Shown here piece after piece: positions 25,920 through 31,649 of a stretch of DNA of 64,000 bases (within the stretch, counting starts at the first letter, position 1; each line of letters begins with the position of its first letter). The translations under genes were made by a program, and so were the position numbers. Origin of the DNA: Escherichia coli (lineage in GTDB: Bacteria; Pseudomonadota; Gammaproteobacteria; Enterobacterales; Enterobacteriaceae); NCBI RefSeq assembly GCF_017348835.2, contig NZ_CP071375.1. One strand, given 5' to 3'. Under the pieces are notes generated by a model that was given only the letters and a program-made list of their open reading frames with translations, searched no databases and was not told where the DNA came from.

Positions 25920-26600
25920 CAAATGCGCCTATAAGGCTCTCTTACCAGCCGCGCCCTAACAGGCGCACACGATCTGACATTTGCATCCAACTTCGTTACT
26001 TACGGCCCGTAAACGGGCTGCCCGGATAGGGAATCGATAACTGCTCTACCATTTTATCCTCTTCAAGCTGGTGCTTTATGTAATCCTGTATCTTCGCCGT
26101 GTTCTTACCCACTGTATCGACGTAGTACCCTCTGCACCAGAACTCCCTGTTCCTGTATTTGAATTTCAAATCACCAAACTGCTCGTAAAGCATCAGACTG
26201 CTTTTCCCTTCCAGATATCCCATAAAGCCGGATACGCTCATTTTGGGCGGGATCTCCACAAGCATATGGATATGATCTGCACAGCATTCAGCTTCCAGAA
26301 TCCGTACACTTTTCCACTCACACAGCTTTCTCAAAATACTGCCTATTGCTCTACGCTTCTCTCTGTAGAACACCTGTCTTCGATATTTTGGCGCAAAAAC
26401 TATGTGATATTTACAGTTCCATCGGGTGTGCGCTAAGCTCTTTTCGTTCCCCATTGGGACCCCCTTTTGATTTCTTGTTTGACACTTGCAGTTGCCAGAC
26501 CGCAAGGTGTTTTAACAAATCAAAAGGGGTTTTAATAACTGGCTCAAAGCTGAAAGCTTTCCGGAACCCCCAGCCTAGCTGGGGGTTTTCTGTGCACAAG
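25920..26600 (-). mobile_element. IS200 insertion sequence (IS200/IS605 family); ends approximate
   Basis: Contains a 152-aa HuH tyrosine transposase and the characteristic IS200 5' leader hairpins; boundaries estimated to about +/-30 bp from the flanking pgm and potE terminators. Confidence 0.8.
25996..26454 (-). CDS. tnpA: IS200 transposase TnpA (HuH Y1 transposase)
   Basis: 152 aa from ATG 26454 (MGNEKSLAHTRWNCKYHIVFAPKYRR...) with HuH motif HIHML and catalytic Tyr in RGYYVDTVG; near-identical to the Salmonella IS200 TnpA from memory. Confidence 0.9.
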   Translation of the reverse strand: MGNEKSLAHTRWNCKYHIVFAPKYRRQVFYREKRRAIGSILRKLCEWKSVRILEAECCADHIHMLVEIPPKMSVSGFMGYLEGKSSLMLYEQFGDLKFKYRNREFWCRGYYVDTVGKNTAKIQDYIKHQLEEDKMVEQLSIPYPGSPFTGRK

Positions 26601-26642: not shown

Positions 26643-27962
26643 TTAACCGTGTTTATTTTTCAGTTCAAAGCGTGGTGATACCAGACCATACAGTGTCCAA
26701 CCGAGGAAGGTCACGATAGAACCGTACAGCATGGCTTCTTCCCCGGATGAGTACAGCGCATAGAAACTGTACATCGCGCCAACAAAAGCAACAAAGTTTG
26801 CAACTTTCGCTTTTGAGGGGGGCACATTAGCGACCTTTTGAATAATGACTAATGCCGCCATTGACAGAATATACGGAATGATATTGGTCACCACGGCCAG
26901 GTTAACCAGCACGTTGAACTGACTGTTTAGCGACGGGCTAATCGTCATCAGCGCCAACCCGCTCTGGATAATCACAATGGTCAACATTCCCTGCACCGGT
27001 GCATCCACTTTGGTTACACGGGAGAAAATTTTAGGGAAGTAGCCTTCATCAGATGAAGATTTAAACACCTGGGCAATGGTGAACTGCCAGCCAAGTAGCG
27101 AACCGCAGCAGGACATCACCATCAGCGCCATAATGACTTTACCCACTTCCGGCGTGAACATCTGCGCGAAGGCCAGACCAAATGGTGCCGTTGAATTTGC
27201 CAGCTCCATATTTGGCACAATCCCGGCAATCACGTTGGTGGAGACGATATAAATCACCGCCGCACCTAACGTACCGCCGAGTACCGCGATTGGCACATTA
27301 CGTTCCGGGTTTTCCACTATATCAGTATTTGCACACGCAGACTCCAGACCAAGAAAAGCCCACAGCGTCATAGCGATGGAAGAACCTACCGCACTGAAGA
27401 ACGGTGCATGATGCGGATTCCAGGAATCAACGTACAGCGTCGGGCTAAACCAGAACCAGCCAATAATGCACAGACCGACGACCGGAATAATGACCCCCCA
27501 CACGGTAATGCTACTGATTTGCCCGGTAATGCGCGCACCACCAAAGTTAGCCACGGTACAAATCCACAGCACCCCGATGGTCGCAAGACCAATCTGCACT
27601 GGCGACAAACTCGCGCCGAGCAGTTCGGTGCCGTAACCAACCGCCGAAATAGCAATCGCGACGTTAGCAATCAGCAGTGAGACGCCGTAGGTATAGTTCG
27701 CCATAAAGTTACCGGATTTACCGAAAGCATACTCGGCATAACCGCCCATACCGCCTGATTTACGGCTGAACATACCGCATTTTGCGAATGCCCATGCCAG
27801 TGCCATTGAGCCTACGGCTGTCACCAGCCAGGAGATAATTGAGATTGTCCCGACTTCGGCAAGCTTTGTCGGCAGCATGATGATACCGGAGCCCATCATG
27901 TTGACCATCGTCAGTATGGTTAACTGAACGACGCCCATTTTGTTCGATTTAGCCTGACTCAT
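26643..27962 (-). CDS. potE: putrescine-ornithine antiporter
   Basis: 439-aa APC-family transporter with 12 predicted helices; recognised as PotE; 4-nt overlap with the speF stop. Confidence 0.95.
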   Translation of the reverse strand: MSQAKSNKMGVVQLTILTMVNMMGSGIIMLPTKLAEVGTISIISWLVTAVGSMALAWAFAKCGMFSRKSGGMGGYAEYAFGKSGNFMANYTYGVSLLIANVAIAISAVGYGTELLGASLSPVQIGLATIGVLWICTVANFGGARITGQISSITVWGVIIPVVGLCIIGWFWFSPTLYVDSWNPHHAPFFSAVGSSIAMTLWAFLGLESACANTDIVENPERNVPIAVLGGTLGAAVIYIVSTNVIAGIVPNMELANSTAPFGLAFAQMFTPEVGKVIMALMVMSCCGSLLGWQFTIAQVFKSSSDEGYFPKIFSRVTKVDAPVQGMLTIVIIQSGLALMTISPSLNSQFNVLVNLAVVTNIIPYILSMAALVIIQKVANVPPSKAKVANFVAFVGAMYSFYALYSSGEEAMLYGSIVTFLGWTLYGLVSPRFELKNKHG

Positions 27963-30157
27963 AATTTTTCCCCTTTCAACAGGGTGCTTTGCGCATCACG
28001 AGGCTTGATGACATAGCACCAAACTTGCTTACGACCATCATGTTCTTCGATATAGACACCCTGCAGCTCCGGTGCAAAACCTGGCAGCAGGTTGATCCCT
28101 TCTTCCAGAGCGCTGAAGTAACGCAGAACAGCACCACCCCAGATTTCACCCGGAACAACACACAGCACACCCGGAGGATAAGGAAGCGCACCTTCGGCAG
28201 CGATACGGCCTTCTGCATCCGGCAGACGAACCAGTTCCACTTCACCGCGTAAATAGGCGTAGTTGGCTTCTTGCGGATTCATGCTGACGCGTGGGAAGTG
28301 CTCCTTACGGAACATCTCTTTTTGCAGTTGTTTCACGTTGTGGCGGGCATACAAATCATGCATTTCCTGACACAACTGACGCAGGGTATAACCGGCGTAG
28401 CGCTCTTCATGCTGTTTGTAGATGGAAGGTAGCACTTCTGCTAATGGCGCGTCGGACTCAAGCAGTTTTTCGAAGCGTACCAGCAGGGCAACAAGTTGCT
28501 GAAGTTTGGCCATATCTTCTGCCGGAGTCAGCAGGAAGAGGATGGAGTTAAGATCGCATTTTTCCGGCACTACGCCATTTTCGCGCAGGAAGTTAGCAAG
28601 AATCGTCGCGGGTACACCGAACGCTTCATATTCGCCGTTACGTGCATCAATACCTGGGGTTGTCAGCAACAGTTTGCATGGATCGACAAAGTATTGATTC
28701 TCTGCATAGCCTTCAAAAGAATGCCAGTGTTCCCCTGGTACAAACTGGAAGAAGCGCAGATCAACCGCAATTTGCGCTGTTTCATACGACTGCCAGGGTT
28801 TACCATCCACCAGTTCAGGTACGAACGGACGAATATGCTGACAGTTATCGAGGATCAGTTTGCGGGCATTAATGCCATTTACCACACAATCCATCCACAT
28901 ATTACGACCGCTGACACCTTCATGCATTTTGGCGTTGATATCCAGTGCGGCAAACAGCGGATAGAACGGGCTGGTGGAGGCGTGCATCATAAAGGCGTTG
29001 TTCATGCGTTTGTGCGGTACATAACGCTGTTGCCCTTTGATGTGGCTGTCTTTTTTATGAATTTGTGAAGTCTGAGAAAAACCAGCCTGTTGTTTATGCA
29101 CAGATTGCGTAACCAGAATACCCGGATCGTTCTCATTAAGTTCCAGTAGCAGCGGCGAACAGTCCGCCATCATCGGAATAAACTGTTCATAGCCGACCCA
29201 TGCTGAGTCAAACAGGATGTAGTCACACAGATGACCAATTTTATCCACCACCTGGCGGGCGTTATAAATCGTACCGTCGTAGGTGCCTAACTGAATCACA
29301 GCGAGGCGGAAAGGACGAGCCTCTTTTGCCCGCTGCGGTGCGACTTCCGCGATCAGCTCACGCAGGTAACTTTCTTCAAAACAGTGCGCATCAATGCCAC
29401 CGATAAAGCCATACGGGTTACGTGCCGTTTCCAGATAAACCGGTGTTGCACCAGCCTGTAGCAACGCTCCGTGGTGGTTAGATTTGTGGTTATTGCGATC
29501 AAACAGCACCAGATCACCCGGTGTTAGCAGGGCGTTTAAAACCACTTTGTTAGAAGATGAAGTGCCATTTAGAACGAAGTATGTTTTATCTGCATTAAAC
29601 ACTTTTGCCGCATGTTGCTGTGCAATGCATGGCGCGCCTTCGTGAATCAGCAGATCGCCCATTGCCACATCCGCGTTGCATAAGTCGGAACGGAACAGCG
29701 TTTCTCCGAAGTACTCCACGAACTGATTCCCTGCCGGATGACGACGGAAAAACTCACCTCCCTGATGACCCGGGCAGTCAAAAGCGCTATTGCCCTGATT
29801 GACATAATCGACCAGTGCGCGGAAGAAGGGCGGGCGCAGTTGCGTTTCATAATGGCTGGCAGCGGTTTCTAACTGACGTCCATAAAACTCTTTCCGTGAT
29901 TCGCAATGCTCGAAGACACCAGAAATACGTGGCAGATATTCTGCTGGTACACGTTCTTCATTTTCCGTTGCAATAAAAACAGGAATACCATAGCCAGTAG
30001 CGTCTATTTCATCGAGTTTTCCACGTTCAACATCACTGACTGATAAAATAATGGCGGCAACGTCAATATAATTACTTTCGTCTATATTCACGCATGCACG
30101 ATGAGTGGAAAAACAATCCGGGCAAGAACGACTAACGGCAATTTTTAATTCTGACAT
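27959..30157 (-). CDS. speF: inducible ornithine decarboxylase (PLP-dependent)
   Basis: Recognised as SpeF; two in-frame ATGs (30166 and 30157); the second gives the recalled 732-aa protein starting MS-LKIAVSRS. Confidence 0.93.
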   Translation of the reverse strand: MSELKIAVSRSCPDCFSTHRACVNIDESNYIDVAAIILSVSDVERGKLDEIDATGYGIPVFIATENEERVPAEYLPRISGVFEHCESRKEFYGRQLETAASHYETQLRPPFFRALVDYVNQGNSAFDCPGHQGGEFFRRHPAGNQFVEYFGETLFRSDLCNADVAMGDLLIHEGAPCIAQQHAAKVFNADKTYFVLNGTSSSNKVVLNALLTPGDLVLFDRNNHKSNHHGALLQAGATPVYLETARNPYGFIGGIDAHCFEESYLRELIAEVAPQRAKEARPFRLAVIQLGTYDGTIYNARQVVDKIGHLCDYILFDSAWVGYEQFIPMMADCSPLLLELNENDPGILVTQSVHKQQAGFSQTSQIHKKDSHIKGQQRYVPHKRMNNAFMMHASTSPFYPLFAALDINAKMHEGVSGRNMWMDCVVNGINARKLILDNCQHIRPFVPELVDGKPWQSYETAQIAVDLRFFQFVPGEHWHSFEGYAENQYFVDPCKLLLTTPGIDARNGEYEAFGVPATILANFLRENGVVPEKCDLNSILFLLTPAEDMAKLQQLVALLVRFEKLLESDAPLAEVLPSIYKQHEERYAGYTLRQLCQEMHDLYARHNVKQLQKEMFRKEHFPRVSMNPQEANYAYLRGEVELVRLPDAEGRIAAEGALPYPPGVLCVVPGEIWGGAVLRYFSALEEGINLLPGFAPELQGVYIEEHDGRKQVWCYVIKPRDAQSTLLKGEKL

Positions 30158-30312
30158 TTTGTTCATCTCTTTATTTCAGGTAATAGCAGGTCCTCAATTT
30201 CTCAAAGGAGAAATCGATCACGCCGGAAAAAAAGCAAAGCTCCACCGCTGATAAATAAATCAGTAGTTTGCTTTTTGCAGATGCAATAACCCAGACCAGC
30301 CCGGTAACTGGC

Positions 30313-30488
30313 TATACTCGTCATACTTCAAGTTGCATGTGCTGCGTCTGCGTTCGCTCACCCCAGTCACTTACTCATGTAAGCTCCTGGGGATTCACTC
30401 GCTTGTCGCCTTCCTGCAACTCGAATTATTTAGAGTATATACTCGTCATACTTCAAGTTGCATATGCTGCGACTCGAATTATGTAGAG
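30313..30488. repeat. ERIC (enterobacterial repetitive intergenic consensus) element with a partial tandem duplication
   Basis: Core at 30355-30398 contains both ERIC PCR primer sequences (reverse complement of AAGTAAGTGACTGGGGTGAGCG, then ATGTAAGCTCCTGGGGATTCAC); full palindromic unit about 30313-30440; the left arm (30313-30346) is repeated at 30438-30471 with one mismatch. Confidence 0.8.
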
Positions 30489-30592
30489 TTTAAAAGGGTT
30501 AGCAGTATATGAGCACCGAGGGATACAGGTATTAACCTGTAATGCTTAAAGTCAGGGAGACCTGTACGCTGGGGTGCCCTTTAGTCAGAAGA

Positions 30593-30697
30593 CTAGCGGG
30601 CATTAAAGAAATGAAAGTCAAAACTATTACGATGGGCAAACTTCATGATATGGGTTGTCCGCCTTATATGAGGCATTAAGCGGTTATTATTTTCCAT
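30593..30697 (-). CDS. speFL: speFL ornithine-sensing arrest leader peptide
   Basis: 34-codon ORF MENNNRLMPHIRRTTHIMKFAHRNSFDFHFFNAR ending in TAG; matches the described SpeFL arrest peptide. Confidence 0.8.
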   Translation of the reverse strand: MENNNRLMPHIRRTTHIMKFAHRNSFDFHFFNAR

Positions 30698-30892
30698 TTA
30701 CCTTTACCTCTTGCTGTGTCAGTTGAAGGTAGAGTTATTCTATCCATGAAATGGCTATAATCTGTGAAGAAGATCAACAAAAAACGATCATACCCCAGAT
30801 AATAAATCATTAATTATGAATAGCGCCATATTAGACGCTGTTTTGTTATTTAAATGTTGTAATTTTGTGTTTTATATTTGCGTTAAGAAATT

Positions 30893-30926
30893 AAACCTGC
30901 CAAATAATAATATTTGGTGCAGGTTT
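30893..30926 (-). terminator. probable kdpE terminator hairpin
   Basis: Imperfect hairpin aaacctgccaaata / tatttggtgcaggttt about 45 bp 3' of the kdpE stop, U-rich tail on the transcript. Confidence 0.5.
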
Positions 30927-30971
30927 AATAATAAATTAATCACTATTTAAGCGAATTTATTGAATAACAAT

Positions 30972-31649
30972 TCAAAGCATAAACCGATACCCAATACCGG
31001 TTTCAGTAATGAAATGGCGGGGGCGAGCGGGATCCTGTTCCAGTTTTTGTCGCAGATGTCCCATATAAATACGCAAATAATGACTGTGTTCGACCGCGTT
31101 TGGCCCCCACACCTGGTTAAGGAGTTGGCGCTGGGGGAGTACTTTTCCGGCGTTGTTGAGCAGCACTGCCAGCAGGCGAAACTCAATCGGGGTGAGGTGC
31201 ACCTCTTCCTCACCCCGGTGAATCACGCGGGCGGCTAAATCGACGGTAACATCGGAAAATTTCACTACCGGATCGGGCGCGGCAGTGGCTGAATGGCGGC
31301 GTAATGCGACGCGCAGACGGGCCTGCAATTCGCCAATGCCAAACGGCTTACTCAGATAATCATCCGCTCCGGCATCCAGCGCGGCGATTTTGTCGCTCTC
31401 TTCGCTGCGTGCGGAAAGCACTATCACCGGCACCGCGCTCCACTGGCGCAGGTCGCGGATAAACTCAATCCCATCACCATCGGGCAGGCCGAGATCGAGA
31501 ATAATCAAATCTGGCTTACGGGTTGCCGCTTCCAGCAAGCCGCGTTGCAGCGTTTCGGCCTCAAAGACGCGCATACCGTCGCCCTCCAGCGCCGTGCGCA
31601 GAAAGCGACGAATAGCCTGTTCATCTTCAACAATCAGAACGTTTGTCAC
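30972..31649 (-). CDS. kdpE: response regulator KdpE (OmpR family)
   Basis: 225-aa receiver plus winged-helix protein; the start codon is GTG at 31649, embedded in ATGTGA with the kdpD stop. Confidence 0.95.
   Translation of the reverse strand: MTNVLIVEDEQAIRRFLRTALEGDGMRVFEAETLQRGLLEAATRKPDLIILDLGLPDGDGIEFIRDLRQWSAVPVIVLSARSEESDKIAALDAGADDYLSKPFGIGELQARLRVALRRHSATAAPDPVVKFSDVTVDLAARVIHRGEEEVHLTPIEFRLLAVLLNNAGKVLPQRQLLNQVWGPNAVEHSHYLRIYMGHLRQKLEQDPARPRHFITETGIGYRFML

Follow-up and report, generated by a model that had tools for sequence, protein, structure and literature searches.

The leader between speFL and speF in the window (here the whole stretch of Escherichia coli DNA that was analysed, 64,000 nucleotides in length) carries two elements that belong to ERIC, a family of small palindromic mobile DNAs (MITEs), and both lie in transcribed, untranslated RNA. 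The two copies are arranged head to tail in the same orientation, with one TA in common. The short copy appears to be an old resident and the full-length copy a later, single gain, and both are probably tolerated as near-neutral passengers of the leader. The ERIC elements of Enterobacteriaceae have reportedly also been described as IRU or RU-1 elements (Hulton 1991; Sharples & Lloyd 1990; Wilson & Sharp 2006). They and their presence or absence from strain to strain are already well known; the element itself is ordinary, and what appears to be new is the instance at this locus. A full-text literature search for ERIC together with speF returned nothing relevant, the locus lists of Wilson & Sharp 2006 being outside its reach.

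Identity and setting of the two ERIC copies

Table 1. Features of the speFL-speF leader, and ERICs in the leaders of other genera. Positions are those of the window unless a comparison sequence (L and a number) is named.
Feature	Position	Strand or orientation	Basis or remark
Full-length ERIC, 127 bp; rarer and apparently younger copy	30313..30439	-	Match to published consensus; fold
Short ERIC, 55 bp; apparently older resident copy	30438..30492	-	Both terminal arms present, central 72 bp missing
TA shared at the junction of both ERICs	30438..30439		Read from the sequence
ERIC central core with ERIC2 and ERIC1R primer sequences	30355..30398		Primer matches
speFL, gene for the 34-aa ornithine-sensing arrest peptide	30593..30697	-	ORF; annotation in PE164
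speF, inducible ornithine decarboxylase gene under leader control	27959..30157	-	Start at 30157 per RefSeq annotation of PE164
speF Shine-Dalgarno region, UAAAGAGAUGAA	30162..30173	-	Predicted partner: 3' part of speFL, 30604-30615
speFL stop-codon hairpin, UGCCC..UAGUC..GACUA..GGGCA	30575..30602	-	Minimum-energy fold; inner stem conserved in 18 species
Leader hairpin, UACAGGU..ACCUGUA	30524..30541	-	Helix 4; 93.7% of cells paired
Two-tier hairpin, 5' half of outer stem, UAACCC	30496..30501	-	Just upstream of the ERIC site; pairs with 30287-30292
Two-tier hairpin, 3' half of outer stem, GGGUUA	30287..30292	-	Encloses the ERIC site
Two-tier hairpin, inner stem-loop, GCCAGUU..GGCUGGU	30295..30312	-	Just downstream of the ERICs
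ERIC, Citrobacter sp. On2M leader	L010:2179-2304	Same orientation	Apical loop of the UACAGG...CCUGUA hairpin
ERIC, Kluyvera genomosp. 1 leader	L018:2170-2296	Same orientation as window
ERIC, K. ascorbata leader	L023:2216-2342	Same orientation	About the E. coli position

The full copy aligns end to end with the published E. coli and Salmonella ERIC consensus sequences. It is an imperfect palindrome of about 127 bp, with arms that form an inverted repeat and fold into a long hairpin, and its conserved core contains the ERIC1R primer sequence as an exact match (30377-30398, plus strand) and the ERIC2 sequence with one mismatch (30355-30376, minus strand); for each, the number of matches expected by shuffling is 0.00. 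Related copies are found at unrelated intergenic sites of one genome, with a median of five ERIC copies per E. coli genome at the megablast level.

The short copy contains both ERIC arms in the correct order and orientation; aligned to the full copy, it shows just one gap, of 72 nt, between a left arm of 21 nt and a right arm of 34 nt. Positions 30313-30349 and 30438-30474, which are 125 bp apart, are identical at 35 of 37 sites, and positions 30414-30439 and 30467-30492, a pair that holds both CTCGAATTATNTAGAG motifs, are identical at 23 of 26. What is repeated is more than the left arm: the second unit forms an entire hairpin from both ERIC arms. When folded in the mRNA sense, the full copy has a predicted energy of -52.9 kcal/mol (z -9.1 against shuffles), the short copy -18.5 kcal/mol (z -5.2) and the two together -71.7 kcal/mol (z -8.6), as two separate hairpins. 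At the sequence level, both elements have every feature expected of an ERIC, one in the full form and the other in the internally deleted form.

A preliminary description of this DNA had already placed a strongly structured ERIC element inside the transcribed speFL-speF leader, with its left arm repeated and followed by a second CTCGAATTATNTAGAG motif, and the primer matches, arm identities, gene boundaries and minus-strand folds all bear this out. Its reading of the repeat as a partial tandem duplication does not hold, as the 55-bp unit is an ERIC in its own right, with an internal deletion, and about 3,290 genomes as well as E. albertii carry it on its own. Nor does the short unit appear to have been copied from the full copy: it is far more variable, and so predates it.

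Two other identities were considered for this region. In an Rfam search, which gave hits to two families only, the small RNA V_AS5 scored 46.3 bits against a gathering threshold of 96, and isrH scored 26.4 bits against a threshold of 45, over model positions 159-216 only; both scores are sub-threshold, and the matches correspond to the ERIC-derived parts of those models. An assembly artefact was likewise rejected, as the 251-bp arrangement recurs in 32 other independent complete genomes.

The window's elements resemble known ERICs in the full copy's 127-bp imperfect palindrome and its core with the ERIC1R and ERIC2 sequences, in their termini (TATAC...GTATA), TA flanks and transcribed intergenic site, in the several near-identical copies per genome, in presence or absence that differs between strains, and in the existence of short (internally deleted) and long (internal-insertion) forms. 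They differ from the usual case in that two members stand in direct tandem with a shared TA, and in that their site is a regulatory leader that has been characterised, not a spacer between ordinary genes. Fourteen additional ERIC loci have been reported in non-K-12 strains (Wilson & Sharp 2006, as cited in PMC10969869).

The sense strand of speFL, speF and potE is the minus strand. The ORF translation of SpeFL, MENNNRLMPHIRRTTHIMKFAHRNSFDFHFFNAR, contains a HIRRTTH motif and a FDFHFFNAR tail, as in the SpeFL family described previously (10.1101/604074), and the RefSeq annotation of the 100% identical genome PE164 labels the product leader peptide SpeFL (WP_001312672.1). The locus has the parts of an ornithine leader: a 34-aa peptide with a HIRRXXH sensor, a Phe-rich effector domain and an Arg before the stop codon, followed by a predicted stop-codon hairpin and a predicted pairing between speFL and the speF ribosome-binding site. 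In these respects it is like the published speFL/orf34-speF leaders, which have a 34-aa SpeFL with HIRRXXH, a stop hairpin and long-range pairing with the ribosome-binding site (10.1101/604074, PMC6386406). Unlike the K-12 leader, which is 257 nt and ERIC-free, the window leader belongs to a different allele (81.5% identity), and its speFL-speF spacer is 435 nt, of which 180 nt is ERIC sequence. The Salmonella leader (379 nt) differs again: its palindromic insert, about 125 nt long, is a different one and is located elsewhere in the leader.

Leader alleles and their history in E. coli

The survey set comprised 5,426 complete E. coli genomes. A K-12-type allele with no ERIC (spacer 257 nt) is present in 1,702 genomes, and a window-type allele with the short copy only (spacer 310 nt) in about 3,290, for example in O55:H7, O157:H7 and ST131 strains. 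The canonical composite of short and full copies (spacer 435 nt) is found in 32 genomes. Strain DCE7 has a short-short-full arrangement (L004:1501-1804), strain NCTC9112 has the full copy only (L005:1501-1698), and 382 genomes have no speFL. The full copy is present at the speF leader in 34 genomes in total, or about 0.6% of complete genomes; this rarity and a private base also set it apart from usual ERICs. The preliminary description had left the comparison with K-12 undecided and had allowed for an arrangement identical in all E. coli; the K-12 leader contains no ERIC, and the composite is a rare allele. The K-12 leader used in work on the speF nascent peptide is itself a minority allele (31% of complete genomes), and is without the ERIC hairpin that most E. 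coli carry.

The K-12-type and window-type leaders belong to two deeply divergent E. coli versions of a block of about 1.4 kb (window 29600-30990), which takes in the promoter region as far as kdpE, speFL, the leader and ~560 nt at the start of speF. Within it the versions are 60-90% identical, as against about 99-100% in the sequence on either side. The window-type block is present in 3,334 genomes, and its nearest relative is that of E. albertii (84-88%). The K-12-type block (1,702 genomes) has about 78-80% identity to every species tested, and looks as if it had been imported from another enterobacterium.

The short copy is by all appearances the older element. A diverged short copy is present at the same site in E. 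albertii, with the same 72-nt deletion endpoints, and among 14 sequences the short copy has about 10 variable sites in 53 nt, as compared with 3-4% in the adjacent leader. Judging from the sequences, it is an old resident and part of the native Escherichia version of the leader, and its occurrence alone in so many genomes and in E. albertii, together with its far greater variability, implies that it predates the full copy. The changes in the short copy cluster at the apical loop, which reads CACATG, CATATG, CATAGG or CACTTG (30438-30492 compared with L003, L089-L094 and L099).

It could be argued instead that a single ERIC was inserted and that its left arm and terminal motif were then duplicated in tandem within this strain's lineage. 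In its favour, the arm copies abut directly, with identities of 95% and 88%, and DCE7 did undergo a 53-bp tandem duplication of exactly this unit, which gave its short-short-full arrangement. However, the short unit stands alone, with no full copy beside it, in about 3,290 E. coli genomes and also in E. albertii, it is far more variable than the full copy, and just 34 genomes have the full copy at this site. This scenario is already refuted by the distribution of the sequences and is scarcely credible. In NCTC9112, a 53-bp deletion left a chimeric full-only copy whose left end has the short copy's variant, and the fusion of this variant to the full copy implies recombination between the repeated arms. 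As far as the sequences indicate, the rearrangements in both strains reflect recombination or slippage between these arms.

The full copy is uniform. Of the 5,426 genomes, 31 contain its exact 127-nt sequence, always at this locus and nowhere else, and the full copy is 100% identical in 31 of the 32 composites. It has a private base, a C (plus strand) at the loop position 30375, which is present at no other locus; its nearest relatives, the ERICs at ybhI-ybhJ and beside gyrA, are 99.2% identical and differ at 30375 only. Gene conversion from ybhI-ybhJ was considered as a way of keeping the full copies identical and was rejected, as the speF copies retain the private base that is absent at ybhI-ybhJ. 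Composites are present on two or more flank haplotypes, which are separated by 140 differences in 3.2 kb, and for each of these haplotypes there is a near-identical relative that lacks the full copy. FDAARGOS_536, for instance, differs from an ST80 strain by 3 mismatches in 3.1 kb and by exactly 125 bp.

The private base favours one origin over repeated insertions, and the absence of variation in the full copy suggests that it is younger than the split between the haplotypes; together, the sequences point to a single and fairly recent origin. The composite corresponds to the short-only allele plus exactly 125 bp (127 minus 2, one TA), and this TA junction is consistent with mobility by transposition. 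Independent insertion of the full copy more than once at the same TA, by active and site-preferring transposition, would account for divergent haplotypes that carry the composite with lineage-specific short-copy variants and for a junction that fits a TA target duplication; it would also have a parallel in the two Kluyvera species, which have independent ERICs at different TAs of the speF leader. This is nevertheless very unlikely, given that the private base is common to all full copies and found at no other locus in 5,426 genomes, with no master copy visible. ERIC transposition is not known to have been demonstrated experimentally.

A further alternative is that the composite is ancestral to the native Escherichia allele and that the short-only form arose many times, via deletion of 125 bp between direct repeats of 33-37 bp. 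By structure alone, a gain looks no different from repeated loss of 125 bp between the 37-bp repeats of an ancestral composite, and the pattern seen between FDAARGOS_536 and the ST80 strain, i.e. the element minus one TA, is equally expected from deletion between the repeated arms. Such deletions are mechanistically easy, as the 53-bp example in NCTC9112 illustrates, and the occurrence of composites on at least two deeply divergent flank haplotypes is compatible with an old composite. The short-only alleles of group X have the right-arm sequence CACATG, identical to that of the full copy, as a deletion product could have, but CACATG is simply the ERIC consensus state. The full copy is invariant although the haplotypes differ by 2-4% around it and at 2 of 53 nt in the short copy, E. 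albertii has the short copy only, and an unstable tandem would hardly last so long in several lineages. For an ancient composite, the estimated probability of a full copy with no differences at all is ~0.05 (the haplotypes are about 2.3% apart locally), which makes this outcome moderately unlikely only. An ancestral composite is thus a less probable reading of these alleles than a gain, and on balance an unlikely one.

We favour a single recent gain, in which an old ERIC had lost its central 72 bp and become the 55-bp copy of the native Escherichia leader. The 127-bp copy was probably added later, once, at the TA on the speF-proximal end of the short copy, and has probably since moved across strain backgrounds by homologous recombination. 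Spread by this route would need a short tract, of at most ~470 bp, between the SNPs at 30241 and 30710. The repeated arms would then have enabled deletions of 125 bp and 53 bp and the 53-bp duplication, by slippage or recombination. With its private base and its patchy occurrence on divergent backgrounds, the full copy may serve as a small, clean case of the gain, recombinational movement and loss of an ERIC.

A candidate for a second short ERIC, beside gyrA (H179), proved to be a full ERIC with two internal insertions of ~70-78 nt. This gyrA-adjacent ERIC (L098:361-861 compared with L096:1294-1645), which is 1 nt from the full copy at speF, is plain in EC0585; in SMS-3-5, its two insertions of ~70-78 nt are at symmetrical positions, which is the known 'long ERIC' form.

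The leader fold and insertions in other genera

In most Enterobacteriaceae the spacer is free of ERICs and 252-259 nt in length. An alignment of 18 ERIC-free leaders from other Enterobacteriaceae gives covariation support to six local hairpins, with 90% of cells paired, as compared with 35-42% when partners were slid, and both-side changes at 21 pairs, as compared with 6-13 in the slid controls. By analogy with the described leaders, the hairpin at the speFL stop codon is the likely counterpart of the pause hairpin that precedes Rho termination (10.1101/604074, PMC6386406). The E. coli ERIC site is the 5' internal loop between two covariation-supported helices, which are the outer stem (helix 5 equivalent, both-side changes at 5 of 7 pairs in 18 species) and the inner stem (helix 6 equivalent, both-side changes at 4 of 5 pairs) of a two-tier hairpin. 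In the transcript, 100 nt separate the speFL stop from the ERICs, and the site is followed after 155 nt by the start of speF.

In minimum-energy folds of the whole leader, all other helices are kept when 55, 127 or 180 nt of ERIC sequence is present. The speF Shine-Dalgarno region is predicted to pair with the same partners in the 3' part of speFL with inserts of 0, 55, 127 or 180 nt, and its paired probability is 0.99 in each of these window-type constructs; when the ERIC sequence is fully removed, this pairing is kept and a few local helices near the site re-pair. Each ERIC is therefore predicted to be a self-contained side-branch hairpin, which emerges from an internal loop of a conserved leader hairpin. 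In Salmonella, the helix equivalent to the speFL-3'::speF-SD pairing has been validated by compensatory mutations (PMC6386406).

Full-length ERICs were also detected at three other positions of the speF leader, in one Citrobacter and two Kluyvera species. The two Kluyvera species show reciprocal filled and empty sites, with different TAs, and in this are cleaner than the E. coli pair. About two-thirds of the leader is unpaired, so three or four sites say little about a preference for unpaired positions. All five ERIC insertions seen in speF leaders have one orientation, in which the transcribed strand is G-rich (C/G 0.67, 6 YC dimers; the opposite strand has a C/G of 1.5 and 20 YC dimers). For about five events, the probability of such a bias is about 1 in 16. 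It hints at selection rather than pure neutrality; one plausible cause is selection against C-rich inserts, which in an untranslated leader could expose the transcript to Rho termination.

The leader of S. enterica subsp. diarizonae (379 nt, as in S. Typhimurium) contains a palindromic insert of about 125 nt (L011:2179-2303) at the site of the Citrobacter On2M ERIC, with ERIC-like termini and a hairpin fold of z -2.9. The insert falls in the 'ring-like structure' (nt 175-449) of Ben-Zvi et al. (PMC6386406), which affects mRNA decay. Its identification as a decayed ERIC was rejected, with an nhmmer E value of 0.06 over 33 nt and global alignments to three ERICs that did not exceed shuffles (z <=1.4).

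Possible effects on speF expression

Control by ornithine and Rho was established for the ERIC-free K-12 leader and for Salmonella (10.1101/604074, PMC6386406). As the 257-nt K-12 leader suffices for this control (10.1101/604074), the ERICs are not needed for regulation. The rut site at which Rho loads overlaps speFL (10.1101/604074), and in Salmonella Rho terminates transcription ~21 nt past the stop codon of the leader peptide, which gives a 157-nt RNA (PMC6386406). Since the window's ERICs begin 100 nt past the stop, they would be transcribed only once the ornithine/Rho decision has been made; both hairpins would thus lie past the point at which ornithine-dependent ribosome stalling decides Rho termination, and at most they might have a quantitative effect on speF mRNA after that decision. 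By analogy with Salmonella, where termination is upstream of the site, and with folds that are predicted to be unchanged, a large effect of the ERICs on Rho access or RNase processing is argued against.

It is possible to view the ERIC hairpins as functional parts of the leader that tune speF, with the alleles as adaptive expression variants. Co-transcribed ERICs in Yersinia operons reportedly (De Gregorio et al. 2005, as reviewed in PMC2229807 and PMC10969869) change transcript stability in an orientation-dependent manner via an RNase E site; they are like the window's copies in being long hairpins within mRNA. In the same accounts, the Yersinia effect needs the ribosome to finish the adjacent upstream gene, which unmasks the RNase E site, unlike the window's ERICs, for which the nearest stop codon, that of speFL, is 100 nt away. 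The Neisseria Correia elements (PMC10969869) are also small palindromic mobile-element hairpins in mRNA leaders and vary between strains, and, as these are processed by RNase III, an ERIC hairpin could be a substrate for a double-strand RNase. However, they are an unrelated family, and they can supply promoters, whereas none are predicted in the speF-leader ERICs: a promoter and terminator scan of 30050-31000 found none within or beside the ERICs, with counts equal to those in shuffles.

Closer to speF, deletions in the equivalent 'ring' part of the Salmonella leader change arginine-dependent mRNA decay, and the ring controls decay that depends on RNase G (PMC6386406); the extra 180 nt in E. 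coli could therefore matter. The uniform, G-rich orientation of the five leader ERICs and the E. albertii short copy, which at ~25% divergence still folds as a hairpin (z -4.3), are also in keeping with a function. The candidate routes are processing by RNase E, G or III, slower formation of the helix that sequesters the ribosome-binding site, pausing of RNA polymerase and late Rho termination, which even jointly seem improbable. Against them, K-12 regulates speF with no ERIC, alleles with 0, 55, 127, 180 and 233 nt of ERIC sequence all persist naturally, the short copy is hypervariable rather than conserved, and the orientation bias is weak and could be the mere removal of a harmful, C-rich, Rho-loading orientation. 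A real regulatory role, for which the Yersinia and Salmonella systems are the analogies, is accordingly doubtful, and hairpins that act as adaptive tuners of speF are hardly more to be expected.

The same caution applies to a broader proposal, that ERICs have landed in the speF leader again and again, subject to a filter on their orientation, and that the resulting 0/55/127/180/233-nt series of E. coli leaders measurably retunes speF expression. Escherichia, Citrobacter and Kluyvera together show at least five ERIC insertions in the leader, all of which put the G-rich strand into the transcript, but the proposal is as a whole unlikely to be correct. If it were, possible routes would be RNase-dependent decay through the 'ring' or the kinetics of ribosome-binding-site sequestration, and the full copy would rank among the few signs that an ERIC has moved recently in E. 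coli.

The ERICs are more readily viewed as tolerated passengers, because K-12 regulates without them, all of the allelic states persist, the short copy is hypervariable and the hairpins are predicted to be independent; their near-neutrality is suggested by thermodynamic folds and by this natural tolerance. Metabolite sensing by a nascent peptide has been dissected in detail with the speF leader as a model, and natural leaders that differ only by ERIC blocks of 53 bp or 125 bp could be used to test the role of the middle of the leader in E. coli.

Several other features of the locus were observed. An A/U-rich stem, AAAAAGCAAA...UUUGCUUUUU, at 30229-30276 (minus strand) encloses a CUGAU...AUCAG hairpin and is followed by a U run; it looks like a terminator or attenuator, yet was missed by the terminator scan, and it is conserved in every aligned species. 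An in-frame ATG three codons 5' of the annotated speF start (30157-30166, minus strand) would give MNK-MSELK..., and K-12 is without this upstream ATG owing to a 2-nt difference. A 44-aa ORF annotated as a 'hypothetical protein' (WP_001299172.1; 30676-30810, minus strand) overlaps the start of speFL, is present in the window-type allele only and is probably spurious. Finally, a tnpA gene of the IS200/IS605 family, an element type unrelated to ERIC, is located directly downstream of potE (25996-26505, minus strand), and in K-12 this position is occupied by the ybfI/ybfG pseudogenes.
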